A stretch of 61,321 bases of DNA, counting the filler, from Candidatus Babelota bacterium (GTDB lineage Bacteria > JAGOBX01): assembly GCA_017999075.1 (NCBI GenBank). It is 6 parts of 6 records of this genome, joined end to end, with 100 filler letters (N's around TTAATTAATTAA, not from the genome) between each part and the next. Parts side by side here need not be neighbours in the genome. Positions count along the whole stretch, not along the records: positions 41,094 to 51,192 come from JAGOBX010000090.1; 5 more parts are not named here. One strand, written 5' to 3'. Within the stretch, counting starts at the first letter, position 1, and each line of letters starts with the position of its first letter. Made by a program: the position numbers and the translations under genes. This document shows positions 1 to 51,192 of the stretch, in pieces. A model generated the notes under the pieces. That model saw only the letters and a list, made by a program, of their open reading frames with translations. It was not told the DNA's origin and ran no database searches.

Positions 1-148
1 TTATAATATATTATAAAATTTTATTTAAAATAACCAAAAATAATCCCGGATTTTTTTGAAAAAAATATATATATTATTGTTTGTTTATTCTAATTTATTT
101 AATATTTATTGTCAACAAATTTCATTTAAAAATTGTTCTTAAAAAAAC

Positions 149-177
149 TTGATTTCTTAATTTTTAAGATATATCAT
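149..177 (+). promoter_or_regulatory. Putative sigma70 promoter of the amylase gene
   Basis: TTGATT(149-154)-17 nt-TATCAT(172-177); the AT-rich background lowers specificity. Confidence 0.4.
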
Positions 178-243
178 CATTTAAATAATATGAGTTAATC
201 AAAAAATAAAAAAATATTATATCTGATTTTCTCATTTTCACAA

Positions 244-2064: not shown

Positions 2065-2142
2065 CCATATAAAATAACACCAAAAACATTCGCCTTAAAA
2101 AACAGGACATTTAAAAATAAAAAGTTTTTCTTTAAGTTAACC

Positions 2143-3423
<1,281 letters not shown>

Positions 3424-3438
3424 GACAAAATCTCCATT

Positions 3439-4554
3439 TTATTTTTTAAATAAATATTTTAAAACATCTTCTGTCCGCAAAGACCACCAGTATTCGTTAT
3501 GCCTGCCGCCTTTTATTATACTGAATTTATAATCAATCATATCAGAAGATTTATTTTGATTTTTTATAGCATTTTCTAAAATTTCACAATGTTCAACAGC
3601 ATTTTCATACCATTTCAAAACTCCTGCTTGTTCAAATTCGTCTGTACCTATATCTATCCATAATTTCAATTTATATCCGAGATTTTTGGATTCAATCATA
3701 TTTATTATTTTCAGATCAGACCAGTAAAGCGCAGGAGAAATAATTCCTGCTTTCCCGAATGTTTCCGGATATTCAAAAACAGCATACAAAGATATTAATC
3801 CGCCTAAAGACGAACCGGCAATTCCGGTATAATCTCTGCCGCATTTAGTTCTATAATTTTTGTCAATAAACGGTTTAAGAGTTTCCTTTATGAATTTTAT
3901 ATAACTATCTCCTTTACCTCCGCCCCTTATATCATCAATATATGGCGAATATTCATTTATCCTGTCAGAAGTATTGTAAATACCAACAACAATAATTTTT
4001 TCAATTTCATTCATTTTTATCAATTTTTCTACAGTTTCATCGACCATCCATTCAATCCCTGAAAACGAAGTTTTAGCGTCAAAAATATTATTGCCGTCAT
4101 GCATATACAAAACCTGATATCTGTTTTTTTCATATTCATAATTATCAGGTAAATATATTATAATTGTTCTGTAATTATCCAGCTGCGGTGAATAAAAATT
4201 ATAATGAAATCTTACATTCCCTGTCAAAGTATTGTATCTACCTGAGGAATATGACCAAAGATTCACTTTGTCAAATATTCTGAATTTTTCATCAACTTTT
4301 ATTTTTCTGTTATTAATTTCAGCATTATCATGACCTTTTTCAGAATCTGCCCAGGATCCAAGCAAATATTTATATTCCGTTGTTTTTATTTTACACTCAG
4401 GAATATCAATTTTTTTCGAACAAAAATTTTTCGTTATTCTATCAAGTTTGATTACAGGATTCCAGTTACCCAATTCTTCTATGTTCCCGGATATATAAAC
4501 ATCGGCTGATCGAGGAGTGTTTTCCGGAACAGCAACATTAAATTCTATCAACAA
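3439..4554 (-). CDS. Alpha/beta-hydrolase (putative esterase family) with N-terminal CBM20-like domain
   Basis: N-terminal VYISGNIEELGNWNP...EYKY; YLPDNY, VLYMHDGNN, GSSLGG nucleophile elbow, GGRHNE. Confidence 0.82.
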   Translation of the reverse strand: MLIEFNVAVPENTPRSADVYISGNIEELGNWNPVIKLDRITKNFCSKKIDIPECKIKTTEYKYLLGSWADSEKGHDNAEINNRKIKVDEKFRIFDKVNLWSYSSGRYNTLTGNVRFHYNFYSPQLDNYRTIIIYLPDNYEYEKNRYQVLYMHDGNNIFDAKTSFSGIEWMVDETVEKLIKMNEIEKIIVVGIYNTSDRINEYSPYIDDIRGGGKGDSYIKFIKETLKPFIDKNYRTKCGRDYTGIAGSSLGGLISLYAVFEYPETFGKAGIISPALYWSDLKIINMIESKNLGYKLKLWIDIGTDEFEQAGVLKWYENAVEHCEILENAIKNQNKSSDMIDYKFSIIKGGRHNEYWWSLRTEDVLKYLFKK

Positions 4555-4637
4555 TTTTTCACATCCATAACTGTTTTTTATATTGAAAAAGCGAACTGCG
4601 ATTTTCAGTTTTTCAATTCAAATTTTTCAATCAAGGC

Positions 4638-5279
4638 TCACTCTGATAATTCAATAAAACATTGTTTTATTGTTTCATAATCAAAACCTTTGTTAAATAA
4701 AAACCTCTTTATTTTATCTTTCAAATCATGATCTTCATTCAAAAGTTCAATATTATTATGTGTTTTCTTCAAAATCAATTTTTTACAGGTTTCAAGATCA
4801 GTGTCTAAACAATCACAATTATTTTTCAAATCTGAAACAGCGTTTTCTATAATGTTTCTGTCTATATTTTTCAGTAAAAGTTCATTTTTGATTTTTCTTA
4901 GCGGTTTTTTATTTAATTTAACCTGATCGTTTATATAACTCCTGGAATAATCATTATCGTCAATCAATTTCAAATACTTGTATTTTTCAATAATTGCATC
5001 AATTACTTTCAGGCTTATCTGATTTTTTTTCAATTCGTTGACGATTTCAAATTCTGTACGTTTACGGGATTTTAATTTTCTTATTATTATTTCTTCAGCA
5101 ATCAATTTTTCAATTTTTTCAATTAAAAAATCCGCCTCTGAAAAAGATAATGCCATTCCATTAAATACGCCTGTTTTATTATAAACTTTAACAGGCATAA
5201 TTTTTTCAAAACCATTTGAAAACCTTACAATATTTTTTCCATTAGAAACTTTGCCGCAATATATTTTAACTGTATCCAT
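4638..5279 (-). CDS. recX: Regulatory protein RecX
   Basis: LKSRKRTEFEIVNEL, LIDDNDY and KIKRFLFNKGFDYETI three-helix repeats. Confidence 0.8.
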   Translation of the reverse strand: MDTVKIYCGKVSNGKNIVRFSNGFEKIMPVKVYNKTGVFNGMALSFSEADFLIEKIEKLIAEEIIIRKLKSRKRTEFEIVNELKKNQISLKVIDAIIEKYKYLKLIDDNDYSRSYINDQVKLNKKPLRKIKNELLLKNIDRNIIENAVSDLKNNCDCLDTDLETCKKLILKKTHNNIELLNEDHDLKDKIKRFLFNKGFDYETIKQCFIELSE

Positions 5280-5335
5280 TATTTTTTTAACAAACCGGAT
5301 TGCTCATACGGTTTTCCCCGAAATTTTGAAATAAC

Positions 5336-7417
5336 CTAACCGACGACAGCTCCTGATTCTATATCATGTTCAGGAGTTACTAAAACAAGCTTGCCATTAA
5401 TTTTAGCTGCAAGCAGCATCCCCTGTGAATCTATATTGAATATTTTTGCTGGTTTCAAATTATATACTATCACAATTTTTTTCCCGGTAAGCTGTTCAGG
5501 TTTATAAAATTCAGCTATACCTGCCACAATCTGTCTTTTTTCGTCTCCAATTTTTATTTGTAATCTCACAAGTTTTTTGGATTTAGAAACGTTTTCAGCT
5601 TCCATTATTTCAGCAACTCTAAGCTGAACTTTGCCGAAATGAGCAATATCTATTATGTCAATAACATTTTCATTTTTAGTTGATTTATCCGATTCTGATA
5701 CAGATTTTTTTTCCCCTGAACATTCTGAAACCTGAGAATTTGTTAAATCTGCCAATTTTAAATTTTCTTCTTTAATCTGATTATCTTCTATTTTCACAAA
5801 CAAAATTTCAGGTTCAGAAATTTTATGCCCAGGTTTTAAAAAAATTTCACCTATGCTTGACCATTCCGAATCAGAACATTTTTTTTCTATATTAAGAAAT
5901 TTCCATATTTTTTCCGCTGTAAACGGCATAATAGGAAACATAAGCTGAGCAAGAAATTTAACCAAATTTATCGAAACATATAAACAATTGCCGCATTTTT
6001 CCTTATCATTTTTATAACAATGCCAGGGAGCTGAATCATTAAAATATTTATTGCAGTCTTTTGCAAGAGACATAAAAACCTTGGCGGCTTCTTTAACTTG
6101 AAATTTAGATAATAATTCAGCCATATTATCGCGCGTTTCTTTGACTTTAAGCAAAATTTTTTCAGATGATTCATCAAGGTTAACAGGTTCCTGAACCTCA
6201 AAATTATAAAAATTCTTAATAAAAATAGCTGCCCGATTCACAAAATTTCCGATATTATCAGCAAGTTCATTATTATTTTTTTCCTGAAAATATTCCCAAG
6301 AAAAATCAGTATCTCTTGATTCCGGAGCATTTGCCGCAACAGCGTATCTTAACGAATCAGGATTATATTTTTCAACTACATCATTAACCCAGATCGCAAA
6401 ATTTCTTGAAGTTGAAATTTTCTGGCTGGAAATATTTAAAAATTCATTTGCAGGAATTTCAGACGGAAGCTCTGCATATCCTGAAGCAAGCAGAATTATC
6501 GGCCATACAATAGCATGAAAAACTATATTGTCTTTACCAATAAAATGAATAATTCTGGTATTTTCTCCACGCCAGTATTTTTCCCATTCGTCTTTCTTCC
6601 CTATTTTTTCAGACCATTCTTTTGTGGCCGATATATAGCCTATAGGAGCTTCAAACCAGACGTATAAAACCTTGCCTTCGGCATCTTTCAAAGGAACTTT
6701 TATTCCCCAATTTATATCTCTTGTAATTGCCCGTTCTCCAAGACCTTCGGTAAACCATCCTTTACAAAAATTTTTCACATTATCTTTCCATTTTTTCGAA
6801 TTTATCCATTCTTCAATACGCTTTTGAAATTTATTCATTTGCAGAAACCAGTGTTTTGTCTGTTTTATAACCGGAATTCCTCCGCAGATTTTACATTTTG
6901 GTTGTTTTAAATCAGTGGGTTCAATCCATTTTCCGCATTTTTCACACTGGTCTCCGCGTGCGCCATCACTTCCGCAATGAGGACATATTCCTTCTATATA
7001 TCTGTCAGCAAGAAACATATTGCATTTGTCGCAATAAAACTGTTTAATTTCTTTTTCAACAAGATTATTATTTTCATAAATTTTCAGAAATATCTCCTGA
7101 GCTGTTTTGTGGTGGGTTTCAATACTGGTTCGTGAATAATTATCAAATGAAATACCAAGTTTTTCAAATGTTTTTTTATTCATTTCATGATATCTGTCTA
7201 TGATAACCTGCGGACTTACTTTTTCTTTTTCAGCGGTAATTGTTATAGGTACACCGTGCTCATCAGAACCGCAAATAAAAACAACATCTTTCTTCTGCAT
7301 TCTTGAAAACCTCACAAACACATCAGCCGGAAGATACGCTCCTGCTATATGTCCAATATGCAGCGGCCCGTTTGCATAAGGAAGCGCGCTTGTAACTAAT
7401 ATTTTATTAGAATCCAT
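5336..7417 (-). CDS. metG: Methionine--tRNA ligase with C-terminal tRNA-binding (Trbp111-like) domain
   Basis: TSALPYANGPLHIGH, zinc-knuckle cysteines, YVWFEAP, FIGKDN, KISTS, C-terminal RQIVAGI...NLKPAK...SQGMLL. Confidence 0.97.
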   Translation of the reverse strand: MDSNKILVTSALPYANGPLHIGHIAGAYLPADVFVRFSRMQKKDVVFICGSDEHGVPITITAEKEKVSPQVIIDRYHEMNKKTFEKLGISFDNYSRTSIETHHKTAQEIFLKIYENNNLVEKEIKQFYCDKCNMFLADRYIEGICPHCGSDGARGDQCEKCGKWIEPTDLKQPKCKICGGIPVIKQTKHWFLQMNKFQKRIEEWINSKKWKDNVKNFCKGWFTEGLGERAITRDINWGIKVPLKDAEGKVLYVWFEAPIGYISATKEWSEKIGKKDEWEKYWRGENTRIIHFIGKDNIVFHAIVWPIILLASGYAELPSEIPANEFLNISSQKISTSRNFAIWVNDVVEKYNPDSLRYAVAANAPESRDTDFSWEYFQEKNNNELADNIGNFVNRAAIFIKNFYNFEVQEPVNLDESSEKILLKVKETRDNMAELLSKFQVKEAAKVFMSLAKDCNKYFNDSAPWHCYKNDKEKCGNCLYVSINLVKFLAQLMFPIMPFTAEKIWKFLNIEKKCSDSEWSSIGEIFLKPGHKISEPEILFVKIEDNQIKEENLKLADLTNSQVSECSGEKKSVSESDKSTKNENVIDIIDIAHFGKVQLRVAEIMEAENVSKSKKLVRLQIKIGDEKRQIVAGIAEFYKPEQLTGKKIVIVYNLKPAKIFNIDSQGMLLAAKINGKLVLVTPEHDIESGAVVG

Positions 7418-7575
7418 AAATTTCCAATCACCTCATAATATTTTGCCTAAAATCATATAATATAAAAAAAACGAATATATTCTGAAACAATAAACATAAA
7501 AACATAAATATATGTTTTTTATATTTTCTGTTATAATATGGTTTATATTAAAATTCAAGATAAATAATATTTTAC

Positions 7576-7604
7576 TTGACATAATTCCATTATTTTTTTA
7601 TTAT
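7576..7604 (+). promoter_or_regulatory. Putative sigma70 promoter of fliN
   Basis: TTGACA(7576-7581)-17 nt-TATTAT(7599-7604). Confidence 0.55.
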
Positions 7605-7745
7605 ATATATGCAAATGTTTAATATATTTTGGCAATTTTTTTATAAGACAGATTTAGTTGAATAATTTATAAAAACATTCAACTGAATTTTATTTTTGAT
7701 AAACATCATTTTTCCGGTTTATCCGGTTTTTAGGAGTTGGTATAA

Positions 7746-8246
7746 ATGGCAGATATGTTAACACAAGATGAAATTAACGCATTATTAGCTCAAACCGGCG
7801 GAGATGATTCTTCTGATTCATCTTTTGGAGGACTTGGCACCGGGGCTCCTGCTCCTGACATTTCATCTGTATCAGTATCGGCTCCTGCTCCTGTTATGCA
7901 GCCTGCAGCAGCGCCAATATCTCAACCACAACCCACAATCTCATATACGCCTCCTTCAGTATCAGTTCAAATGCCTGTAAAAGGAGACATGGGATATTTC
8001 GGAGATATTTCCTTAAAAATGTCTGTTTTTCTTGGTAAAACAAAAATGCCTTTAAAAGAAGCTCTCAAACTTGCAAAAGGTTCTGTAGTAGAACTCGAAA
8101 AAATTCAAGGAGAATATGCTGATATTTTTATTAACAACAAACTTTTTGCCAGAGGAGAAATAGTGCTTGTTGATGAAAATTTCGGAATCAGAATAAAAAA
8201 AATAATTGATATAGAAGAACGGGAGCAATTATTAAAACGCCAGTAA
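7746..8246 (+). CDS. fliN: Flagellar motor switch protein FliN (SpoA domain) with N-terminal FliM/FliY-type peptide
   Basis: C-terminal DISLKMSVFLGKTKM...GSVVEL...NNKLFARGEIVLVDENFGIRI; N-terminal LTQDEINALL; Pro/Ser-rich linker; AGGAG RBS. Confidence 0.85.
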   Translation: MADMLTQDEINALLAQTGGDDSSDSSFGGLGTGAPAPDISSVSVSAPAPVMQPAAAPISQPQPTISYTPPSVSVQMPVKGDMGYFGDISLKMSVFLGKTKMPLKEALKLAKGSVVELEKIQGEYADIFINNKLFARGEIVLVDENFGIRIKKIIDIEEREQLLKRQ

Positions 8247-8315
8247 TTTCCGATTACAAATACAATTCATTTTTTCAAATATTGACTATTAGATAAAATT
8301 CGGGGGAACTTGTAA

Positions 8316-9788
8316 ATGCTTCCATTAAACAGTCTTATATTTTTTTTAATATTTGACGCTATACTTATAAATTGCGGAATCATTATTTCCTTTTATTTAA
8401 AATTCAGAGGAAACGTTCCTGATTATAATCTTCAGGGGTATGAAGGATTATATATTTTTTTAACTTTTTCTTATTTTATAGGCATTTTCATAAACGGATT
8501 ATATAAAAAACCAGAAAATATATCTTACTATAAAATCATAAAAAATTCCGTTAAATCCGTAATAATTTCAACTTTATTATCAATGATGTTCGGATATATT
8601 TTACGTTCAGGAAGGGCAAATTCATTTCCTGCATCAGTATTTATTTTATCAATATTTATTAATTCGTTCATTCTGATTATTTCAAGAGCTTTATCAAAAT
8701 CTTTTGTTATAAACGTTAAATTTTACAATAAATTAATTGCGTTCATATTAAACAGAATACCAGAAACATTATTTATAACAGCAGGAATTTATGTTTCTTA
8801 TTTAATAAAATTCAGAACATTAAACATTCCGGAATATAATTTCAGTCCATTCGGGTTCAGTACATTTATAATATGCGTATCATATTATATTTTCATATAC
8901 AAATTCTTATTGTACAAATACAGCAGAGAACAGTCCAATATCTCAGTTTTGTATGTAACGGTAAAAACTACAATAGCTTCTTTTATTACAGGATCAGCGC
9001 TACTTTTCATTTTCCGTGAAAAAGTAATGGGATTCCCGTCATCAGTATATTTTATAAGCTGCATAATCAATTATTTTTCTCTGGCAATATGGCATATTTT
9101 GATAAGGCGCGGTTTTTTAAATGAAATTGAAGTTGATTTGGATGCCGAAGAACCTGAAGATGAAAATTGTGCAGACGCAGGTGAACTGCCCGCAGAACGA
9201 GATGGTTTTTCAACTTATTTCAGGGCATTTCATTCACCAACAAAATTTATTGAAAGTTTCAAAAATTTCGGTTCTGAATTTTTCAATTCATCAGTGATTT
9301 TGTTTTTAATAGGATGGTGGATGATACTTGTTTATATGGTTTTTATGCCTGATTATTTAAAAAATATTATTATACGAAACCCTGACAATTCTGCTGTTAT
9401 TCATAATGGTCCTCTATTTTCAAATATTACTTTTCTTACATTCGCCATAACAGTAGGTTCATTTTATATATTATGGTGTTTATTAAACCATATAATATTA
9501 AAATTTTTCAAGAAAGAAAATATGATAAGATTCTGGGCCGGAAGTTTTTATATATTTTCATTAAACATAGTTCTATATTTAATTTGGATTATATCCGGCA
9601 ATTTTTTTATTAAACCTGTTTCGATATCTGTTGCAGTTATAATATTCGCATGGCTATTTATTCTGAATGCCAAGTTAATATCAAAAATATTTGATGTAGC
9701 ATTTTTTAAATCAATTATTATAAATTTAATTTCATTATTTTTATCATCAGTTATAATAACAGTTATTATATTTTATATAAATAAATAA
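8316..9788 (+). CDS. Polytopic membrane protein: two tandem WcaJ/WbaP-N-terminal-like 4-TM modules plus a Yip1-like C-terminal domain
   Basis: Internal repeat (YLKFRG.NVPDYN...GLYK...FPASVFILS vs YLIKFRTLNIPEYN...LLYK...FPSSVYFIS), acidic linker, then FHSPTKFIESF and about 5 TMs; function unknown. Confidence 0.5.
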   Translation: MLPLNSLIFFLIFDAILINCGIIISFYLKFRGNVPDYNLQGYEGLYIFLTFSYFIGIFINGLYKKPENISYYKIIKNSVKSVIISTLLSMMFGYILRSGRANSFPASVFILSIFINSFILIISRALSKSFVINVKFYNKLIAFILNRIPETLFITAGIYVSYLIKFRTLNIPEYNFSPFGFSTFIICVSYYIFIYKFLLYKYSREQSNISVLYVTVKTTIASFITGSALLFIFREKVMGFPSSVYFISCIINYFSLAIWHILIRRGFLNEIEVDLDAEEPEDENCADAGELPAERDGFSTYFRAFHSPTKFIESFKNFGSEFFNSSVILFLIGWWMILVYMVFMPDYLKNIIIRNPDNSAVIHNGPLFSNITFLTFAITVGSFYILWCLLNHIILKFFKKENMIRFWAGSFYIFSLNIVLYLIWIISGNFFIKPVSISVAVIIFAWLFILNAKLISKIFDVAFFKSIIINLISLFLSSVIITVIIFYINK

Positions 9789-9793
9789 ACAAT

Positions 9794-10232
9794 ATGAACA
9801 TAAATAAATTCGAAGAAATTATACGAAATATACCTGTTTTTTCAAATTTACCTGAAGAACATCTGACACTTCTGCATAAACAATTTGAAAAAAAAAGTTT
9901 TCATAACCAAAGCATAATATTTTCAGAAAAGGATCCAGGACAGGACATGTTTATCATAATAAGCGGAGCAGTTGAGATATTCCAGGAACATAACAATAAG
10001 AAAAAAGTTCTTGCTGTATTAAAAGACGGTGATTTTTTCGGAGAAATATCTGTTCTTACTTCAATTGCCCGCACAGCGTCTGTTATGGCAGTTACAGATG
10101 TTGAAATACTTGTTTTAAACAAACAAAATTTAATAGAATTATTAAAAAAAAATTATAAATTTTCATTAAATATCATAAAAGCGTTATCCGAAAAACTTAT
10201 TAATGCAAATCAGCAGATCAACTGGCTTACTT
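9794..10232 (+). CDS. Crp/Fnr-family cyclic-nucleotide-binding protein, 3'-truncated by contig end
   Basis: IPVFSNL, IFSEKDPG, GDFFGEIS...RTASV phosphate-binding cassette; runs into the linker. Confidence 0.85.
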
Positions 10233-41093: not shown

Positions 41094-42375
41094 TAAGGAG
41101 CAATTTTAACTCTGTAATGCTTTTTTGGTGTTTTTTCAAATGAAAATAAGAAGAAGCTTCGAAAAATTTTATATTAAAATATTTTTGGTCATCTGTTAAT
41201 TTTATGATTGAAGATATTTTAAGAACATCGTCGTATTTATTAAGCGTATAATAAGCATAAACTGTTTTTTCAAGTATTTCAAGATTTGAAATTTTGTTTT
41301 TAACGGCAAAATTTTCATAAACATAAATCAAATCGTTTAATTTATCAGCTTTATAAAGCGCGTTTATTGATAAAGCAAGTAAATCTTCCCTTATAATATC
41401 GGGATATTTTTTCAATCCTGTAACAAAATAATTTGAAGCAATATCATATCTTCCTGAATTATAATATATCAGACCAATTCTGTAAGGAACTTCATTCAGA
41501 TAATGAGGCATTCCTGTTGATTCGATTTTTAAAAGGTATTCTATGCTTTTATCCTGATTATTAAGCATATCATAACATTGAGATATTCTAAGAAGAACAA
41601 GATTTATAAAATCAGGTTTAATAGAAAATTTCTCGACAGCAGTTAAATATGATAGAGCTTTTTCATGATTTTTCTTTGCGAAATAAATGTCTCCGGTATA
41701 AAAATAAAATCTCTGCCTGTCCAGATCAGATAATAATCCTGTGTCAGATTGTTCGAAATTGAATTTGTCTGAAATATCCAAGGCTTTGTCATATTGTTTA
41801 TTCAGATAATAAGCTTTAAATAATTTAAAACTTAATGAAATGTCTTCTTTTGAATCGTTTTCATTTTTATATGTTTCTATTGCCTTGTCATATTTCCCGG
41901 TGTTAAAATAACAGTCACCGATATATATTGAAGCTGCGCGCAAGTTTTCCGAGTTCTTCTTTTTTTTTGCAGTTGTTGATGAGGAAATTTTAATATATTT
42001 ATTGAATTGAAATATAGCGTTTTCAAATTCATTTTTATAATAATAACCCAATCCGAGATTGAATACAGCTATGTCAAGGTTATGGTATTTGGGATAATTT
42101 ACTGTTATTACGGAAAATTTTAAAATAGAAGAATCGTATTGCTCAAGAATTTGATAACATTGTCCCAGCCATAAATAAGCGTCTGCAATGCTGCTGCTTC
42201 TGGGATAAGTTGAAATGAATTTTTCGAATTGATCAGCAGCCATAGATGGATCCTGCTGAAACAATTTCAATCCGAATTCAAAATCATCCTGTTCTTTTCC
42301 GGCAAAAACCGAACATATGAATATATTAACTAATAATATTGCTGTTATAAATATTTTTTTATAGAATTTCATCAA
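41094..42375 (-). CDS. Periplasmic TPR protein, 3'-truncated
   Basis: Signal peptide; FISTYPRSS...AYLWLGQCY and NYPK...AVFNLG TPRs. Confidence 0.82.
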
Positions 42376-42438
42376 TAAAACCCAAGTTTAAAATTTTAAT
42401 TAATTATTATAAAATAAAATTTTAATTTTGTAAAGGAT

Positions 42439-43905
42439 TTATTGAACCTGATAAACAACAATAGAATTCGTGACTGCGTTTGTTCCTTTTAATCCGGAAA
42501 GGATTAAGATATACTGACCGGTTTTTGCAAATTTTAAGTTTACTGCTATATTGCTTGCATATTTGACAAAATCATTGAATTTAAATTCTTTGTTTGCAAG
42601 AAAAGGATAAACTCCCCATATCAAATTCATTTGCCTGAGAACAGATTCAGATTTAGTAATTGCAATTATAGGCGCTGCCGGTTTGTCAGCTGCTACAAAA
42701 CGCGCTGTAGAACCTGTTCTTGTCAATACCGCAATGCATCTTATGCTTAAATCTCTTGAAATTTGAGATGTTGCAGCGCTTATGGCATCAAGCATAGGCT
42801 CGAGCTTTTTATTGGTGTCAATATTAAAATTGAATTTTACGCTTGCCCATTGGTTAGATTCTACTTCCCTTAAAATTGAATCCATCATAGCTACTGTTTC
42901 CACGGGAAATTTTCCTACAGCGGTTTCTCCGGACAGCATAACAGCATCGCTCCCGCTCATGCATGCTGCTGCCACGTCTGTAACTTCTGCTCTGGTAGGT
43001 CTTGAATTTTCAATCATGCTTTCCAGCATTTGAGTAGCGACTATGACAGGTTTCCCGAATTTATTTGCAAGTTTAATAAGTTCGTTTTGTATTAAAGGAA
43101 CCTTTTGCTGCGGAAGTTCCACTCCAAGATCGCCTCGGGCAACCATAATGCCGTCTGAAATTTCAATTATTTTATTGATATTTGCAAGAGCTTCAGGTTT
43201 TTCTATTTTTGATATTACAGGAATATTTTTTTTATATCGTTTTAACAAGTTTTTAAGTTCGATAATATCTGATTCTTTTCTGACAAAAGATAACGCAATA
43301 TAATCTACATTGCTTTTAATGCAGTATTTGACGTCTTTTTTATCTTTTTCAGTTAATGCAGAGATTTTTAAATTCGTATCCGGCAGATTCATACCTTTGT
43401 GATCTTTCAATATTCCGCCGCGTATTACAACCGCTTCCAGCTCCGTATTATTAGATTTTTTTATAACTTTAACTTCCATAGCTCCGTCGTTCAGCAATAT
43501 TCTTTGTCCTGTTTTAACTTCTTTTATAAGACCTTTATACTGGGATGGAATAATGTTTTCGGAACCTATTACGGATTTAACGGTTATAATGATTTTTTTT
43601 CCTTCAACAAGGGTTATAAATCCGTTTTTAAATTTTCCTACCCTTATTTTAGGGCCGCATAAATCTGCAAGAACAGCAACGTGTTTATTTAACTTTTTTG
43701 CTGTATCTCTGATTTTTTTTATGTTTTTACAATGTTCTTCAGGATCACCGTGAGAAAAATTTATTCGAAAAACATTGACTCCTTTTTGAATGAGTTTGGA
43801 TAAAATTTCATCAGGAGATGATGCTGGCCCCAAGGTTGCAACAATTTTTGTTCTTCGGAATATCAGATAATGATTTGAAAAATCAATTATATTTTTTTTA
43901 TTCAT
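42439..43905 (-). CDS. pyk: Pyruvate kinase
   Basis: RRTKIVATLGPAS, RINFSHG, DLCGPKIR, KIEK, MVARGDLGVE, ATQMLESM, PTRAE, MLSGETA. Confidence 0.97.
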   Translation of the reverse strand: MNKKNIIDFSNHYLIFRRTKIVATLGPASSPDEILSKLIQKGVNVFRINFSHGDPEEHCKNIKKIRDTAKKLNKHVAVLADLCGPKIRVGKFKNGFITLVEGKKIIITVKSVIGSENIIPSQYKGLIKEVKTGQRILLNDGAMEVKVIKKSNNTELEAVVIRGGILKDHKGMNLPDTNLKISALTEKDKKDVKYCIKSNVDYIALSFVRKESDIIELKNLLKRYKKNIPVISKIEKPEALANINKIIEISDGIMVARGDLGVELPQQKVPLIQNELIKLANKFGKPVIVATQMLESMIENSRPTRAEVTDVAAACMSGSDAVMLSGETAVGKFPVETVAMMDSILREVESNQWASVKFNFNIDTNKKLEPMLDAISAATSQISRDLSIRCIAVLTRTGSTARFVAADKPAAPIIAITKSESVLRQMNLIWGVYPFLANKEFKFNDFVKYASNIAVNLKFAKTGQYILILSGLKGTNAVTNSIVVYQVQ

Positions 43906-44035
43906 ATATGTTTTTATTTATCTCCTGTAAAAATTATAAAAAATATTTTTTCGATTGCTGTTTTTTTTATCATTCAAGACAAAAATAGTAATTTTTATGA
44001 AAATTAAATGCAAAATATAAAATTATCTGAATTGA

Positions 44036-47000
44036 CTAAACCGATATTTTATTATCATAAAAACTGAATAACCCATCTACGATTTCCGATTTGATATTAA
44101 ATAAATTCAAATTACTGAAATTGGAAATCATATCTGATTTTATTTGATCAAGACGCAATTTTGCTTCAAACTGGTTATTGATTTTGTCATTAGAACTGTA
44201 TAGCGAATCAATACGCGAATGACCGTAATCAATAGCTCCGTTTAATAATTCGGAAATTCCTCTTATATTGTTGAGTTCTGTTTCAACAATATTTTTGGCA
44301 TTTGCGTATATCGCATAAACTTCGCGGGGAGTTTTGAATTTTATGTTATCATAATATATTCCCAATTGTTTTGTTGTTAATTGGTTAGGAAGCCCGATAT
44401 CTATTTCGTCCATATTTTCACTGCTTAATATTTTTATATCATTAATTTCTACATTAAAGGAATATTCTCCGGGTTTTATGTTGTTATAAAAATCAGAGTT
44501 AGCACTATCCCATATAACGGAAATAGCAGAATTACCGTTTCCTACAATGTTTTCTCTGCCTTCGTAAATATTAGTTTTAGGTCCTCCATTGAATGAAGCG
44601 ACAGCCTGATGAGATAATTTTAATTGAATCGTATCTCCTGAAGCAAAAACATTATCTGCAGATGCAGGAGCTACTCCGTTAGCATTAACTTTACCGTTAA
44701 TAAAATCATCCCATCCCTGTATAGAAATATCTATTGAAGTTTTTCCGCCGTCTGCTCCTGTTTTAGTGAAAGTATTTGTAGTAGCTCCGTTTTGAGCCAT
44801 TTGTATATAATTATCGGCATTCGGAGCAGTATCATTAGTGAGTTGACCTGACTGATTACTGTAGACTTTCCAATTTCCTGAACCAGCATAAACTAAATAT
44901 ACTGTTTCGTTAGTGTAAGTTGCCTCGTCATTAATTTTTGTGTTGCTGCTGTCGAAAAAATTGTTTGCGGCAGACACATTGTCTTTATCAGAATGGAAAT
45001 CATAACTGAACTGAACTTTCTGAAAATAATTGTCTGTTTGTAAGAAAAAGATTTTATTATCTTCAAAAATTACCGGATTTTTTCCGCTCGGTAAATTTGT
45101 TCCTGTTGTTTTCCATATTTCTGAAACCTGGCTTAAAGAATTACTGTCGTATGATGAATCGAAGTCTATCACTGATTTTGAAAGGTAAATGCTTTTATCA
45201 TCTGATTTTCTGAAAAATAATCCGCCGTATTCATCAGCGTAGGTTAATGAATAATTTGATTTTTGTTCGATTGAAGTTGTTCCTGAAGTATTATCAAAAT
45301 CAGCGTTTTGAACGACAGCATCTTTTATTCTCAAACTAAAACTATCGCCGAAACTATAAGGTTCATTATCAATATTTAATTTTAAAAACGATGAATTGAC
45401 CTGTGAATTTGAAATACTGTAAAAATTATTTTTAGATGAATCATTCAGATGAGCTTCATCTGGATCAATTTCAAGATCCCCGTCAGAAATATCTGTTTGC
45501 GTCGGGTTTACATTTATCCAGAAATTATCGCCTGAAGCCACATTCCCCAGTGAACCGTATTTTTGACTGTTGACTTCCCATATTCCGTTTGTTTCATCTA
45601 TAAGATTGAAAGAAATATAATCTTCAACAATATATTTTCCGAAACTGCCGATATTATCCGCAATAGAATCAATTGATACTTTATCTGAAGTTATATCTCC
45701 GCTTATTATGTCGTCATAAGGTTTAAGATTAATTAAATTGTATCTGTCGCTTAAACTTGTAGAAGGAGAAGAAGAATAATATCTGTAATTTTCTGCAATA
45801 TAGTCATTTGATAAACCGATATTTTTATAAGTATTTCCGCTTATAGAACCCTGCATAACAGTTTTGTTGTTGCTGCTGTCAGCAGGATCAATTTCAGTAA
45901 CAAAATTTGAAATGATCTGATATGAAGATTCTTCGTATAATTTTACAAGAGTATATTTTGAAGTTGCATCAGGAGTTGTTGCCCAATTTGCATCTATGCT
46001 TGCTGTTTTTGTTGTTCCGTCATAATCTGTTATTTTTCTGAATTGGCCTACGCCTGTTCCATCAGTGATAAAAACTCCCCACCCATTAAAATAATCGTCT
46101 ATTCCTGAATATGTATCATCGAAAGTAATGCTGCCTGCGGTTTGCGTTACTGCAGAATGGTTGTTTCCTGTATATTGTTCGGTTGAATCAGTAAGCATTA
46201 CCATAAATTTTGAAGTATTATTTGGAGCAATATCCCAATCGCTTGCAACTGTTGCTGTTCTTGTGCCTCCGGTATATATAGATATATCTTTATATTGTCC
46301 AGCGCCCGGGCCTCCTGTTATAAAGACAGTGTATCCTTTATAAAATGTTGTGAAAGAATCGTTGGTTGTTCCAGGGATATCAGGAAACCTTATTGTTGAT
46401 ATAGAACCGCTTCCTGCCGTGTATTCCGATATAGTTGAACTGAACGGAATCGAATTCGGGAGCTGCATAAGTTTGAATTTTGAATTTAAATCAGGAGTAG
46501 TGGTCCAGTTATCAACTGTCGCTGTTTTAGTAGTTCCGTCATAATCTGTAATTCTTCTGAATTGTCCTGCGCCTGTTCCAGAAGTAATATAAATTCCCCA
46601 ATTATTGTAATAATCGTTTAATGAACTTGACAAAGAAGATGATTTTATAGTGTTTGCGCCTATTGCGGTTATGGTTAAATTATCTGTTCCGTAAAATGTA
46701 TTTTCTATCGTAGCAATTTTAGTAGTTCCGTCATAATCAGTTATGGTATTGTATGTGCCTGCGCCTGTTCCGTTATTTATGTAGAACGCCATACCTGTAT
46801 AAAAATCGTCTTCGCTTGACGATGATTCGTTTAACTGAATTGTATTTTGAGTAGTATTATTGAATTGCAGTAAAGCATTTTCTTCAATAATTCCGCTGTA
46901 TCCTATATAATATTTTCCGTCTGAACTTTTAAGTATTTCCGGATAGCTTGCAGGACTTGATATGCTGTCGGAAAGTTCTGTTATTGAACCTGCATTGCTG

Positions 47001-49477
47001 TAATCCGTGTCAGTTACATCAAAATATTTTATCGGATGATATATATAATATTTGGAAGAAGAGGTCGTACGGCTTAATAAAGGTTCATTTAACCATGCAT
47101 TTTTGTTGACTCCGTCGTATGAAGAAATAGTCCGCACCTGACTTCCTATAGATATCTGCATGCCTGTATAATAATTATCCACGCTGCTTGCAGTTGATTC
47201 GAGTTTGACATACTGGTTTGTAGTTGATTTTACGAAACCTGCTTCGGTTTGTTTGAATACAGCCATTTTTCCGTCTGCATCTATGTAAGAAGAAGATAAA
47301 GTTCCTCCAGGCAATCCTAAATTTTTTATGAATGTATATGTGCTGGCTGCTACAGCAGCAGGATCAGCCCAATTACTGTCAACTGTAGCTGTTTTTGTTA
47401 TTTCATTGTAAGCTGTGACAGTTTTAGATTCATTGTTTACTGTTATTATTGAACCAACATAGGAATTTGCAGTGGCTGAAGCAGTGGCTGCGAGAGTAAT
47501 TGTGTTTGCAGTAGCTCCAGTTGCGGTGCCGCTGTGATTTGCGCTGATTATTGCAGCGTCTTTAAATATATTTGATGTTGTAGCTCCTTCAAAATTGTAA
47601 ATTTTAATTTTTTGCGAATCAATATTGTCGTTATAAACAATAGAATATTTTCCTGATTCGTATTCTGTAATATCATATTTCGAACTTGAATCTCCGCCGG
47701 CTATTTTGACTCCGGTATAATACGGCTTAAGATAATTAGCCGAACTTTCGTTCATATCAAGAGAATATAACCCTGATGAATACAGCTTATATTGGGTAGT
47801 ATTGTCAGGTCTGTTATAATCACTTGTAAAAGTAACCTGGTATACTGAAGAAGCATTAGGTATAATATTGTTTATTACATATTGAGATGTAGTATTTATA
47901 GCTACATCAATTGTGTAATCCTGACCTGTTATTGTGCTGCCGTCTCCGTCTGCCCAGTTACTGTTTACAGTTGCTGTTTTAGTGGCGCCGTTATATGCTG
48001 TAATGGTTTTTATTTCTCCATTAACATTTATTTCAGAACCTGTATATGCATCATTAACAGCAGAAGCTCCTGCGCTGAATGTTATAGTATTTGCAGTTGC
48101 AGCTGCAGAAACACCGCCGTGATTAAGAATTCCCTGTTCGGATATGTTCCAATCCGAATCAACAGTAATTTCATTTGTAGTTGCGTTATAAGCTGTTATA
48201 TTTTTTGTGGAATTTGTTATTCCTGCGGTTAAAGTTACAGAAGCTCCAGAATAATAATTTGTATAAGTTTTTATGTCTCCTGATTCGAGAGCTAAAGTGT
48301 TGGTTCCGCTTCCTGCGCTTGCTGCATTTCCTGTAACGTTAGTATTCCAATCCGTATCTAAAGTTAAAGTATTTGTTCCGTTATTGTAAGCTGAAACAGT
48401 TCTGATTTCTCCTGCAGCAGGTCCTGAAATTATTTTTACTGATGCGCTGGTATAATTTAAGTCGGGAGCGTCATCAGCTAATATTATTGTATCCAAAGCT
48501 GCTCCGTTTTTTGCCTGTGCTTTATGAGTCGTCCAATCGCTGTCAACTGTCGCAGTATAAGTAGATGCATCGTACGCTGAAATTGTTTTAGTTTGAGAAT
48601 AACCGCTGCCTGAAGTGAGAGTTATTGTAGAACCTGCATAAAAATCATTTATATCTTTTCCGATTGGATCAAGATCAGCAGAATTAAATTGTATTGTGTT
48701 ATTTCCTCCGCCTGAACCTGCCGCTGTTCCCGAAGAAGATGTCTGACCTACGAATAATCCAACGTCTCCGGCTTTTTTTAAACCGTACATATTTATTATT
48801 CCATCTACGCTAATTTTTGAACCGATATTTACTTCGTATGCCCCGCCAGATTTGCTTGCTCCGTAAACTTTGCTTAAATCAAATTCAATATTATTTTCAA
48901 ATTCGATTTCCAGATTATTTGCGCCTGCTGAAATTTCGTTGGATGAATAAGAAACGCCGTTTATTGAAAAAGTTTCTGGAACTGATAGTGTTCCTGAAAA
49001 GTTTGAGCCGCTTAAAGTTGTAACATTCGGATCAATAGTTTTTTCTGCTGAAAAGATTTTTTTGTTTGCTAATTCTGTAATGCTCAGATAATCTTCAATT
49101 TTTGAATTGATATCTTTTAATTTTTCAGAAAGCGATGAAATGCTGTTTATGGTTTGTTCACTGTCGTTTAATTTATAATCAAAAAAGTTTGTAAGCACAA
49201 TTTTTGCTTCTTCAAGAAGATTTATAATTTCTTTGTAAGAATTTTCTGAATAATCTATTCCTACTATACCTTCCTGGAGGCTTTTTCTTACTCCATTCAT
49301 AGCATAAGTTAAATTATATATGAAAGAAGGCATAACAGCCTGAAAATTTGCAGATATGGTTTCTCTGTCTAAACCATAAGCATCATCAATTTTTGACAGT
49401 TTTGATTGTAATACATTTGAAATTTTTGTAAATTGCGACTGAATTGCAGAAGAATTGGAAACTTGATTTAAAGACAT
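44036..49477 (-). CDS. Giant flagellin-like protein (1813 aa) with a repeat-rich central insert
   Basis: N-terminal ~145 aa follow the flagellin pattern (KIDDAYGL~DDAAGL; LQEGI..IDYSENSYKEIINLL~QDGISLIQTAEGALNEI..IL; TELANKKIF~TEFNGKKLL); last ~130 aa helical like the flagellin C-terminus; no signal peptide. Confidence 0.68.
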   Translation of the reverse strand: MSLNQVSNSSAIQSQFTKISNVLQSKLSKIDDAYGLDRETISANFQAVMPSFIYNLTYAMNGVRKSLQEGIVGIDYSENSYKEIINLLEEAKIVLTNFFDYKLNDSEQTINSISSLSEKLKDINSKIEDYLSITELANKKIFSAEKTIDPNVTTLSGSNFSGTLSVPETFSINGVSYSSNEISAGANNLEIEFENNIEFDLSKVYGASKSGGAYEVNIGSKISVDGIINMYGLKKAGDVGLFVGQTSSSGTAAGSGGGNNTIQFNSADLDPIGKDINDFYAGSTITLTSGSGYSQTKTISAYDASTYTATVDSDWTTHKAQAKNGAALDTIILADDAPDLNYTSASVKIISGPAAGEIRTVSAYNNGTNTLTLDTDWNTNVTGNAASAGSGTNTLALESGDIKTYTNYYSGASVTLTAGITNSTKNITAYNATTNEITVDSDWNISEQGILNHGGVSAAATANTITFSAGASAVNDAYTGSEINVNGEIKTITAYNGATKTATVNSNWADGDGSTITGQDYTIDVAINTTSQYVINNIIPNASSVYQVTFTSDYNRPDNTTQYKLYSSGLYSLDMNESSANYLKPYYTGVKIAGGDSSSKYDITEYESGKYSIVYNDNIDSQKIKIYNFEGATTSNIFKDAAIISANHSGTATGATANTITLAATASATANSYVGSIITVNNESKTVTAYNEITKTATVDSNWADPAAVAASTYTFIKNLGLPGGTLSSSYIDADGKMAVFKQTEAGFVKSTTNQYVKLESTASSVDNYYTGMQISIGSQVRTISSYDGVNKNAWLNEPLLSRTTSSSKYYIYHPIKYFDVTDTDYSNAGSITELSDSISSPASYPEILKSSDGKYYIGYSGIIEENALLQFNNTTQNTIQLNESSSSEDDFYTGMAFYINNGTGAGTYNTITDYDGTTKIATIENTFYGTDNLTITAIGANTIKSSSLSSSLNDYYNNWGIYITSGTGAGQFRRITDYDGTTKTATVDNWTTTPDLNSKFKLMQLPNSIPFSSTISEYTAGSGSISTIRFPDIPGTTNDSFTTFYKGYTVFITGGPGAGQYKDISIYTGGTRTATVASDWDIAPNNTSKFMVMLTDSTEQYTGNNHSAVTQTAGSITFDDTYSGIDDYFNGWGVFITDGTGVGQFRKITDYDGTTKTASIDANWATTPDATSKYTLVKLYEESSYQIISNFVTEIDPADSSNNKTVMQGSISGNTYKNIGLSNDYIAENYRYYSSSPSTSLSDRYNLINLKPYDDIISGDITSDKVSIDSIADNIGSFGKYIVEDYISFNLIDETNGIWEVNSQKYGSLGNVASGDNFWINVNPTQTDISDGDLEIDPDEAHLNDSSKNNFYSISNSQVNSSFLKLNIDNEPYSFGDSFSLRIKDAVVQNADFDNTSGTTSIEQKSNYSLTYADEYGGLFFRKSDDKSIYLSKSVIDFDSSYDSNSLSQVSEIWKTTGTNLPSGKNPVIFEDNKIFFLQTDNYFQKVQFSYDFHSDKDNVSAANNFFDSSNTKINDEATYTNETVYLVYAGSGNWKVYSNQSGQLTNDTAPNADNYIQMAQNGATTNTFTKTGADGGKTSIDISIQGWDDFINGKVNANGVAPASADNVFASGDTIQLKLSHQAVASFNGGPKTNIYEGRENIVGNGNSAISVIWDSANSDFYNNIKPGEYSFNVEINDIKILSSENMDEIDIGLPNQLTTKQLGIYYDNIKFKTPREVYAIYANAKNIVETELNNIRGISELLNGAIDYGHSRIDSLYSSNDKINNQFEAKLRLDQIKSDMISNFSNLNLFNIKSEIVDGLFSFYDNKISV
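45905..48745 (-). repeat. About 10 copies of a ~70-aa intragenic repeat (NTI.L...S...D.Y.G..I.IT.G.G.GQ.R.IT.YDG.TK.ATVD..W...PD.TS.Y)
   Basis: Seen in the protein (e.g. GTGAGQFRRITDYDGTTKTATVD, GTGVGQFRKITDYDGTTKTASID) and in DNA (GTTCCGTCATAATC near 46014, 46533 and 46725). Confidence 0.9.
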
Positions 49478-49482
49478 TTTTA

Positions 49483-49515
49483 TCCTCCCTGTTGTCTGTA
49501 ATCAAAATCCGTTTG
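49483..49515 (-). promoter_or_regulatory. Candidate CsrA-binding leader and RBS of the flagellin-like gene
   Basis: Minus strand CAAA-CGGAT-TTTG hairpin with GGA in the loop, then CAGGGAGGA Shine-Dalgarno. Confidence 0.45.
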
Positions 49516-49540
49516 TTTATGTAAACCTTATTCTATTATT

Positions 49541-49569
49541 AATATATCAAAATTTTATACTAATGTCAA
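49541..49569 (-). promoter_or_regulatory. Sigma70-type promoter of the flagellin-like gene
   Basis: Minus strand TTGACA(49569-49564)-17 nt-TATATT(49546-49541), with TG extended -10. Confidence 0.6.
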
Positions 49570-49605
49570 TTTTTATTTATTATTTTTTAAATATATAAGA
49601 TTTTG

Positions 49606-49634
49606 TTGACATATCCTGCATTTTAAAATATAAT
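49606..49634 (+). promoter_or_regulatory. Consensus sigma70 promoter of rhomboid-murI
   Basis: TTGACA(49606-49611)-17 nt-TATAAT(49629-49634). Confidence 0.75.
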
Positions 49635-49677
49635 TATTAACAAAATTTAGATATTTTTTCAAGGATTTTATAAAAAT

Positions 49678-50613
49678 ATGAATAGTAATAATAACTTTAG
49701 ATACGAATCTGTTTCTTTTGCCGTTCCTGCGTTTACTACTGTAATAAAAACTATAGTAATTATAAATGCCGCATTGTTTTTTTTAGATAATATTTTTTCT
49801 AATCTCAATATTTCATATTATTTTGTGTGGTCATATAATGCTATAATATATAAATATGAAGTGTGGCGGTTATTTACTTATTCATTTGCTCATTTGAATT
49901 TGCCTGATTTAATTTTAAATATGCTTATACTATGGATGTTTGGTTCTGAATTGGAAAATAAATGGGGAACGAAATTTTTTGTTAAATATTATTTGGTATC
50001 GGTTATAGGTGCAGGAATTTTATCTCTTCCGTTTGCAATAAACAGCAGTATGCCGTTATGGGGTGCAAATGCGGTAATTTTGAGTTTGCTTACTGCATAT
50101 GCCGTGAGTTCCCCTAATAAAATAGTTTATTTTATGATGTTTTTTCCTATGAAAGTAAAATGGCTCGTTGCTGTCATAGGGTGTATAAATTTACTTATGG
50201 TTAAACCGGACGATAGCAGCAGCCTTATGTATTTGCTTCATATTAACGGAATTGCCGCAGGATTTATTTATTTAAAGTATTCTATAATTATTGATATGAT
50301 AAAAAATAAATTCCGCAGAAGAAATATTTTTGTTGATAATTTGAAATATATTAAAAATTCCGGATATAAAAAAAATTACGATAAAATTAATATTTATTCG
50401 TTTAATGATACTAAAACTTCAATAGATTCGCGAAAAACGGGAAAAAATGAAGTTAAATCAGAAATAATAGATTTGGATAAAAAAATTGATGAAGTTCTGG
50501 ATAAGATTAAAAATAACGGAATGGATTCGCTTAATTATGAAGAAAAAATGTTTTTAAAACGCGCCAGTCATTTATTGAAAAATAAATATTCTGAAAATAA
50601 TGTTAAGGATTGA
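49678..50613 (+). CDS. Rhomboid-family membrane protein with small C-terminal domain; catalytic Ser apparently absent
   Basis: VWRLFTYSFAH, NMLILWMFGSELE..WG, HING; C-terminal IDEVLDKIKNNGMDSLNYEEKMFL. Confidence 0.85.
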   Translation: MNSNNNFRYESVSFAVPAFTTVIKTIVIINAALFFLDNIFSNLNISYYFVWSYNAIIYKYEVWRLFTYSFAHLNLPDLILNMLILWMFGSELENKWGTKFFVKYYLVSVIGAGILSLPFAINSSMPLWGANAVILSLLTAYAVSSPNKIVYFMMFFPMKVKWLVAVIGCINLLMVKPDDSSSLMYLLHINGIAAGFIYLKYSIIIDMIKNKFRRRNIFVDNLKYIKNSGYKKNYDKINIYSFNDTKTSIDSRKTGKNEVKSEIIDLDKKIDEVLDKIKNNGMDSLNYEEKMFLKRASHLLKNKYSENNVKD

Positions 50614-50616
50614 TTT

Positions 50617-51192
50617 ATGATTGAAAATATTTGCTGTAATCCTATAGGCGTGTTTGATTCCGGATTAGGAGGGTTAACTGTAGTCCGTGAATTGAGAAAA
50701 CTTCTTCCTTTTGAAAACATAATTTATTACGGCGATACAGCTCGTGTTCCATATGGTTCAAAATCCAAAAAAAAAATAATTGAATTTTCTATTGAAAATG
50801 CGAAATTTCTTTTGCTTCATAATGTTAAGATTATTGTAATCGCCTGCAATACTTCTACTGCAGCAGCTCTTGATGAAATAAAAAAGGTTTCAAAAGTTCC
50901 AGTGGTCGGAGTTATTAATCCTGGTGTTAAAATAGCTGCGTCAAAAACAAATAATAAAAAAATCGGAGTTATCGGAACTTTAGGAACGATAAGCAGCGAA
51001 GCTTACACAAGGCATCTGCTTGATTTGAATGATAATATACATATTTATTCTCAGCCGTGTCCGTTGTTTGTTCCTCTTGTGGAAGAAGGCTGGACAGATA
51101 AACACATTACAGAACTTGTTATTTCCGAATATCTGACGCCGTTAAAAATTGCCGGTATTGACACTCTGATTCTGGGATGCACGCATTATCCT
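50617..51192 (+). CDS. murI: Glutamate racemase, 3'-truncated
   Basis: IGVFDSGLGGLTV, DTARVPYG, IACNT, LGCTHYP. Confidence 0.96.

Follow-up and report, generated by a model that had tools for sequence, protein, structure and literature searches.

The window analysed here is a stretch of 61,321 nucleotides from the genome of a Candidatus Babelota bacterium (JAGOBX01; GCA_017999075.1). The genome is a bin of 594 contigs, several of which are joined in the window (positions 1-10232 are one contig). The gene of interest lies on the contig that corresponds to about 41094-51192, and arguments from gene neighbourhood are valid only inside that stretch. Here, a minus-strand open reading frame (ORF) of 1813 amino acids (aa), P0001, carries a series of homologous barrel repeats. 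In the region 47775-48745, also on the minus strand (residues 245-568, with 48745 corresponding to residue 245 and 47775 to residue 568), four of these repeats stop at a conserved Trp. We refer to each such truncated repeat as an opener and to the last-strand motif that completes a repeat as a closer; in P0001, four openers are followed by four closers back to back. The features are as follows, with coordinates of the openers and closers all confirmed by translation. Profile stops, independent E-values (i-E), matrix scores and the two AlphaFold2 (AF2) models, with their predicted local distance difference test scores (pLDDT), are described below.

44036..49477, minus strand: ORF of 1813 aa (P0001), with helical-looking termini, a beta-rich middle of ~1550 aa and 10-11 barrel-repeat copies of ~68 aa each
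48533..48715, minus strand: opener 1, residues 255-315, strands 1-5 of barrel 1, ending in VDSDW (311-315); profile stop 58/68, i-E 2.6e-15
48347..48505, minus strand: opener 2, residues 325-377, ending in LDTDW (373-377); profile stop 59/68, i-E 5.1e-11
48149..48310, minus strand: opener 3, residues 390-443, ending in VDSDW (439-443); profile stop 57/68, i-E 5.8e-7
47954..48112, minus strand: opener 4, the innermost barrel, residues 456-508, ending in VNSNW; i-E 2.3e-15
47906..47953, minus strand: closer 1, residues 509-524, ADGDGSTITGQDYTID, including ITGQDYTI (516-523); contiguous with opener 4, and a strand of barrel 4 in both AF2 models
47870..47899, minus strand: closer 2, residues 527-536, INTTSQYVIN; matrix score 7.0; a strand in model 1, unplaced in model 2; proposed last strand of barrel 3
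47831..47860, minus strand: closer 3, residues 540-549, PNASSVYQVT; matrix score 18.5; a strand in model 1, unplaced in model 2; proposed last strand of barrel 2
47780..47809, minus strand: closer 4, residues 557-566, PDNTTQYKLY; matrix score 18.2; pLDDT <50 and unplaced in both AF2 models; proposed last strand of barrel 1
47582..47770, minus strand: degenerate fifth repeat in tandem after the four closers, residues 570-632; a weak match to the repeat model, kept in the ortholog

The repeats were delimited with two models. The first (A1) was built from five complete copies in P0001 and has 72 positions. It gives 11 repeat matches in the protein, and copies 1 to 4, at 272-320, 336-382, 394-445 and 459-510, end at position 59-63 of 72, which is the Trp. 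A profile search with A1 against 1.84 billion representative proteins returned 12,479 proteins at E<=1e-3, 5,577 at E<=1e-10 and 632 at E<=1e-30; the family survey reported here rests on the best 150 of the 12,479. From these 150, leaving out P0001 and its ortholog, we assembled 505 complete repeats into an independent family profile of 68 positions, in which the Trp stands at position 55 and the last strand at 59-67. This profile gives 10 matches in P0001 (i-E 5.8e-7 to 2.4e-26). Its matches to repeats 1-4 (266-318, 328-381, 391-445 and 459-509, with the i-E values listed above) all stop at profile position 56-59 of 68, that is, in the Trp region. Truncation at the Trp is exceptional, since 586 of 668 repeat matches in 151 family proteins extend to the last strand, in plain tandem. 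The initial annotation had described repeats 1-3 as stopping at the Trp (VDSDW, LDTDW, VDSDW), with the next repeat starting at once and four closing segments following repeat 4, and all of these strings are present where it placed them. Moreover, the profile stops agree with its description, and no closer motif lies between the repeats: the best closer-matrix scores in the 16 residues past the Trp of repeats 1, 2 and 3 are -15.5, -11.2 and -11.7, respectively, and there is no Tyr or Phe at all between each of these Trp residues and the first strand of the following repeat.

The ending previously given for complete repeats, W-x3-PD-x-TS-x-Y, proved to be that of the family as a whole. The consensus of the 505 repeats reads AGxAxTITLDAxASATDDxYNGxxIxIxxGTGAGQxRxITxYxGxTKVATVDxxWxTxPDxTSxYxI, and its last-strand motif is W-x3-P-D-x-T-S-x-Y/F-x-I/V/L (Trp 93%, P 99%, D 78%, T 80%, S 85%, Y/F 100%, I/V/L 97%). 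Closers were detected with a nine-column score matrix of this motif at a threshold of >=6, with 300 shuffles as background. P0001 has six matches at or above the threshold, versus 0.17 expected per shuffled protein. Those at 995, 1085 and 1169 are part of complete repeats. The other three, at 527, 540 and 557, lack an opener of their own and fall within the 40 residues past repeat 4, a stretch in which ~0.005 closer matches would be expected by a hand estimate, versus the three observed (P ~1e-8). Closer 1 (GQDYTI) belongs to a divergent type; its matrix score is low, and the matrix missed it. We accept it as a closer because a paralogous complete repeat (652-718) and its ortholog end alike, with a W-[AS]DGDGS..Y.[FI]-type ending right after the Trp. 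In the ortholog, this complete repeat, which is paralogous to repeat 4, passes from its Trp directly into an ending of the closer-1 type, W-SDGDGSTISGHNYAFIK.

The layout is conserved. Only 2 of 41 related genomes have a match, namely the source genome and one of the same genus. The ortholog in the latter, a different species, is 66% identical over 395 residues and keeps the four-opener, four-closer order; it is recorded both as a fragment (P0004) and as a full-length protein of 1839 aa (P0160) with the same layout and the same N-terminus. In its closers, the aromatic and I/V/L positions are retained in all four, within a stretch that otherwise has below-average conservation and variable flanks. 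A further fragment, 95% identical to P0001, covers openers 1-4 and ends ahead of the closers. A word-index search with residues 235-600 returned only P0001 itself at near lengths and, at shorter lengths, P0004 and the 95%-identical fragment, and a profile search for more orthologs with the C-terminal part found only the other contig of the ortholog. At the level of sequence, then, both orthologs have three unclosed openers in series, each stopping at its Trp, and three orphan closers past the innermost barrel, so that orphan last-strand motifs and unclosed openers are equal in number. A misassembled repeat region is a natural concern for a 594-contig genome, and all the more for a window that joins several contigs. 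That such an artefact produced this layout is hardly credible, given that another species, at 66% identity, shares this order, both in its full-length protein of 1839 aa and in an independent fragment, and that the 95%-identical fragment covers openers 1-4.

Simpler nests exist elsewhere in the family. Three, in unrelated members, were found among the other 149 best family matches. In P0104, two openers (1909-1961 and 1970-2024) are followed by PDNTSDYTI, three residues, and PASDTDYQL. In P0129, openers at 824-879 and 892-946 are followed by PDATSVYAI and immediately by NSAYEIR, a weaker second closer. In P0033, the outer barrel breaks off at profile position 50 and resumes, for its last 28 residues (ATVNSNW..PDSTSTYSI), past a complete inner barrel. 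Because these three proteins hold one-in-one nests, the family accepts its own copies in its loops. Among the best 150 proteins, a nest deeper than one-in-one occurs only in P0001 and its ortholog.

The same survey bears on the plainest alternative, in which repeats 1-3 would be degenerate five-stranded tandem units and the four C-terminal segments would make up either a small separate sheet or a flexible linker. Indeed, a profile match that stops at the Trp does not by itself identify an open barrel. Among the other 149, a divergent strand closes the repeat in most cases of apparent truncation (4 of 6 candidates, for example), and the same holds for the repeat at 655-706, which the profile also leaves at its Trp. 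The family-wide association between an unclosed opener and an extra closer (table [[363,2],[5,1]]; Fisher p 0.048) accordingly has low power, four of its six "unclosed" openers really being closed by divergent strands. A degenerate tandem does not, however, explain why orphan closers equal unclosed openers in number in both orthologs, nor why a matrix derived from other proteins gives closers 3 and 4 scores on a par with those of closers in complete repeats; P0033, moreover, is an unambiguous split barrel in the same family. We regard the tandem explanation as unlikely, and return to it with the structure predictions below, which contain a further point in its favour.

The reading that we prefer for residues ~255-566 is a nest. 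Four homologous six-stranded beta-barrels of ~65-70 aa each would be joined by recursive self-insertion, with the closers completing them in the order 4-3-2-1. We assign this nested order a probability of roughly 0.6. The insertion site in barrels 1, 2 and 3 would be the short loop between strand 5, which ends at the Trp, and the P-D-x-T-S turn into strand 6, and the next barrel would sit in that Trp/P-D loop of the preceding one. Barrel 4 would be finished by its own strand 6, and the chain would then supply the sixth strands of barrels 3, 2 and 1 in order. The initial annotation had likewise proposed that each domain is inserted in the last loop of the previous one; the opener/closer grammar, the ortholog and the one-in-one nests favour that proposal, and its weak point is the outer pairings.

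Two AF2 models address the pairings. Model 1 covers residues 245-575, was computed from a 35-sequence alignment, and has a mean pLDDT of 72.7. In it, closers 1, 2 and 3 are strands, at model positions 277-280, 288-292 and 302-305. A wide structural search with model 1 against 48,161 chains listed 50 rows. In 17 of these, 64-72 residues are aligned from model 204-208 to 279-286, which is barrel 4 with closer 1, contiguous. Another 28 rows span 130-137 to 292-300 with only 67-85 residues aligned (one outlier, 142); since opener 3 holds only 64 residues, this span joins barrel 3 to closer 2 and leaves out barrel 4. One row (81 to 305, 65 aligned) joins barrel 2 to closer 3. The remaining rows cover 136 to 202 only (one row) or barrel 1 alone (three rows, 1-3 to 76-80). 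On a second look, the Foldseek list was divided into 37 of 50 rows of the type barrel 3 plus closer 2 and 13 of the type barrel 4 plus closer 1. Model 2 covers residues 225-645 with a 44-sequence alignment and a mean pLDDT of 68.8. It also has closer 1 in place with barrel 4, at pLDDT ~85, and among its 50 structural matches 30 are barrel 4 with closer 1, 18 are barrel 1, and two span 191/192 to 303/306. Barrel 4 is thus paired with closer 1 in both models, and the pairings of closers 2-4 with barrels 3-1 are probable. As for the reverse-order closing that AlphaFold had been expected to show, model 1 has it for barrels 4 and 3 and on a single row for barrel 2; model 2 has it for barrel 4 only, and closer 4 never takes part.

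Several results weigh against the nested order. The topology of the models was read from the first and last aligned residues of structural matches and not from coordinates. Model 1 has a low predicted template modelling score (pTM), 0.45, and its closers reach a pLDDT of only 58-70, with closer 4 below 50. In model 2, residues 529-600, closers 2-4 included, are strandless at pLDDT 32-37, barrels 1-3 are open five-stranded units at pLDDT 80-95, and none of the 50 listed rows joins an outer barrel to a distal closer. Such confident open barrels with an unstructured tail are what the tandem explanation would lead one to expect. Closer 4 is placed by neither model and is never joined to barrel 1. 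A likely reason for the mixed outcome is that the tandem homologs in the alignments hold no information on distal strands. Pairing tests based on sequence did not favour the nest either. A covariation potential between opener and closer columns, trained on the 505 complete repeats, was right for 262 of 469 domains in cross-validation (130 expected) and fully right for 57 of 130 proteins; it ranks the nested order 6 of 24 in P0001 and 10 of 24 in the ortholog. A nearest-neighbour pairing score, correct in 131 of 230 cases in cross-validation (60 expected), ranks the nested order 20 of 24 and 17 of 24, and pairing in the same order 1 and 2. Since neither score recovers the secure pairing of opener 4 with closer 1 either, we judge them uninformative rather than contrary for the divergent P0001. 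The last of these points concerns P0155, a distant homolog that is 36-40% identical over the C-terminal 624 residues and whose record has none of the N-terminal part. The record starts at the equivalent of opener 4 and yet holds three closers, with the 13-residue closer-2 unit exactly missing. P0155 is compatible with a nest only if the record is cut at its N-terminus, and searches of genome and metagenome collections did not recover the DNA around it. A complex prediction of residues 248-385 (openers 1-2) with 538-582 (closers 3-4), run without controls, gave scores of 0.06 and 0.01 versus a mark of 0.34 and speaks neither for nor against.

The closers might also complete the barrels in some order other than 4-3-2-1, through interdigitation or domain swapping, as when a closer is used by an adjacent barrel. 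This would fit with the failure of the sequence-pairing scores to single out the nested order, with a closer 4 that is never placed, and with a precedent: in the passages of PMC11515920 on the Si3 insertion of cyanobacterial RNA polymerase, recursively inserted domains are described as exchanging secondary-structure elements in some cases. On the other hand, successive closers are joined by 3, 4 and 8 residues, as would suit a chain passing from one barrel to its host, and model 1 is nested for barrels 4 and 3 and, on one row, 2. We consider swapped pairing quite unlikely. Donor-strand exchange, in which the orphan closers would complement open barrels of neighbouring subunits in a polymer, draws slight, indirect encouragement from a weak likeness of the termini to those of filament-forming axial proteins, and barrel 1 is modelled confidently without a sixth strand. 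Nevertheless, there is no evidence that P0001 polymerises, closers 1 and 2 pair within the molecule in model 1, and the one-in-one nests occur in proteins of quite different context, which makes such an exchange very improbable.

If the nested order 4-3-2-1 holds, the module may be a rigid projection with barrel 4 at its tip; the initial annotation had suggested an out-and-back stalk of four domains. We can also imagine, tentatively and with more doubt than conviction, that the Trp/P-D loop is a reusable self-insertion site and that nest depth evolves shell by shell, with four shells in this genus and three openers predicted for P0155. The length of the surface projection would then be tuned by gain or loss of matched opener-closer pairs, and, if the protein is exported unfolded from N to C, folding would proceed from the inside out with the emergence of each closer.

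Recursive insertion of a domain in its own kind is an already known architecture because of RNA polymerase Si3. In the portions of the literature on which we draw, single-level insertions dominate, and a six-level recursive nest is described in Si3 of the cyanobacterial enzyme (PMC13114784). In Si3 of the beta-prime subunit, as in P0001, small homologous beta domains, there of the hybrid-motif (HABAS) type, are nested in their own copies over several levels (PMC11515920, PMC13114784). The two differ in that Si3 is of another fold family, belongs to a cytoplasmic enzyme and is inserted into the trigger loop, and in that its nest is backed by cryo-electron microscopy, whereas that of P0001 rests on sequence grammar and one of two AF2 models. 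A further difference is that in P0001 all three insertions would be in the same loop, from the Trp to the P-D turn. The initial annotation called this architecture rare, which is fair, although Si3 is a precedent. A limited search of the open-access full-text literature found no such nest described for this domain family or for a flagellin-type protein. Should the nest be real, P0001 would be a second clear case of a domain recursively inserted in its own copies, this time in a protein of secreted or surface type and with another fold, and the architecture would be a recurring evolutionary route rather than an RNA polymerase one-off. It is also a useful hard case for structure predictors, as AlphaFold2 gave two different answers from alignments of tandem relatives that have no distal-strand signal.

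The repeat also draws attention to a very large barrel family that lacks a curated model and is found decorating toxin-like proteins as well as phage tails and the sheaths of injection systems. No Pfam, NCBIfam or PHROGs model scored above its cut-off for five single repeats and 20 family proteins (E<=10), and P0001 as a whole belongs to no family in these collections, its sole row being a sub-threshold uL24m-like match (E 0.025). Of 32 family proteins scanned for other domains, one has tail-sheath domains and one has domains of a Tc-toxin A component; P0005 has a borderline match to Phage_BR0599 (PF09356) inside a repeat, at 23 bits and at the cut-off. P0129 ends in a tail-fibre PHROG. Baseplate proteins and many three-repeat proteins of 350-700 aa are also among the best 150. 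In an atlas look-up, the repeat was nearest to unnamed viral clusters. A tblastn search of repeats 9-11 against 50,697 phage records yielded a single weak match, in which 28% of the query aligned at 38% identity with a baseplate structural protein. The family is mostly linked to phage tails and injection systems, and the arrays in tail-sheath, tail-fibre-like, baseplate and Tc-toxin-A-like proteins, and in many unnamed ones, are the same domain by profile, but in plain tandem. Because the family occurs in phage tail fibres, tailspikes, baseplates, tail sheaths and Tc-toxin-A-like proteins, the module in P0001 may well be a surface decoration or spacer.

At the level of fold, the P0001 barrel resembles the small six-stranded barrels of siphophage tail-tip and baseplate chains (8rk3_g, 8vjh_D, 8gtc_P and, in lambda, 8iyk_J 490-567), as well as the gene-transfer-agent chain 6tba_7A and EF-Tu domain 2. 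The Z scores are 7.6-8.8 (middling for the tool), with a root mean square deviation of 2.2-3.8 Å over 68-85 aligned residues. These chains differ from the P0001 barrel in that they are only 6-18% identical to it, with no sequence or profile link. A sequence-profile search of the PDB returned only one chance row (E=1), and Foldseek found no PDB match at E<=0.001. Among predicted viral structures there were 19 matches at E<=0.001, including a pectate-lyase-superfamily phage protein and baseplate and tail-fibre proteins. PF09356 has no match in this genome at E<=10.

The initial annotation called the insert "flagellin-like", a label that neither Pfam nor gene neighbourhood supports. Neither Flagellin_N (PF00669) nor Flagellin_C matches the whole of P0001 or its 140-aa ends at E<=10. 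A genome-wide search with PF00669 gave 14 matches, 12 of them above the cut-off and none on the P0001 contig, and the gene lies outside any flagellar cluster, judging from its neighbours on that contig. What is left is that the N-terminus is weakly and colinearly similar to flagellins encoded in the same genome. A phmmer comparison of the N-terminal 160 residues gives 13-17 bits for six of these flagellin frames and <5 bits for the remaining frames at their loci; with hhalign, residues 57-145 are weakly colinear with flagellin 62-145 (P 0.017, probability 2.6%). The C-terminus of P0001 gave nothing against flagellins with hhalign, and an atlas look-up of the N-terminus gave no usable match. 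Flagellin and hook-associated proteins have an out-and-back domain order. As in these proteins, the termini of P0001 are helical-looking and flank a large variable middle, and its N-terminus has no hydrophobic stretch resembling a signal peptide. Unlike the repeats of P0001, the nested domains of flagellin are not copies of each other. It is possible that P0001 is built on a flagellin-type scaffold. The 12 above-cut-off Flagellin_N matches are on contigs C342, C352, C537, C334, C272, C412, C270, C248 and C560 (loci L009-L016). Open frames of 1175 and 1559 aa contain some of them and would encode giant flagellins; the short ones have FlaB-like N-termini.

The neighbours of the P0001 gene are of the housekeeping kind and encode pyruvate kinase, a racemase, a rhomboid protease, a response regulator and tetratricopeptide repeat (TPR) proteins. 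By profile search, the whole genome has 10 repeat matches, all on one contig and all in the P0001 gene.

Other features were noted in the later repeats of P0001. A possible second nest, of two levels, lies at 46412-46855 (minus strand; residues 875-1022), with the same layout in the ortholog. Repeat 8 (875-928) stops at a Phe in the Trp position, and the complete repeat 9 begins eight residues on. Past the last strand of repeat 9 is SSTISEYTA, which is loosely closer-like, with no P-D and with Ala at the I/V/L site. Alternatively, repeat 8 may be closed directly by DNLTITA (930-936). A closer-like segment with no obvious opener of its own, LYEESSYQIIS, stands directly past the last strand of repeat 11 (residues ~1180-1190; 45908-45940, minus strand); its counterpart in the ortholog is IYQQDTSYQILS. 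Before several later repeats (residues 608-630, 728-745 and 851-872, minus strand), there is a short recurrent motif, [SD]GK[YM]x[IV]x[YF], plus a strand ending in F, an element that may be an extra hairpin attached to the barrel. Finally, an ORF of 116 aa, Cys-rich and of low complexity, runs antisense to the repeat region at 47882-48232 (plus strand), and is most likely a by-product of the repeat codon pattern.

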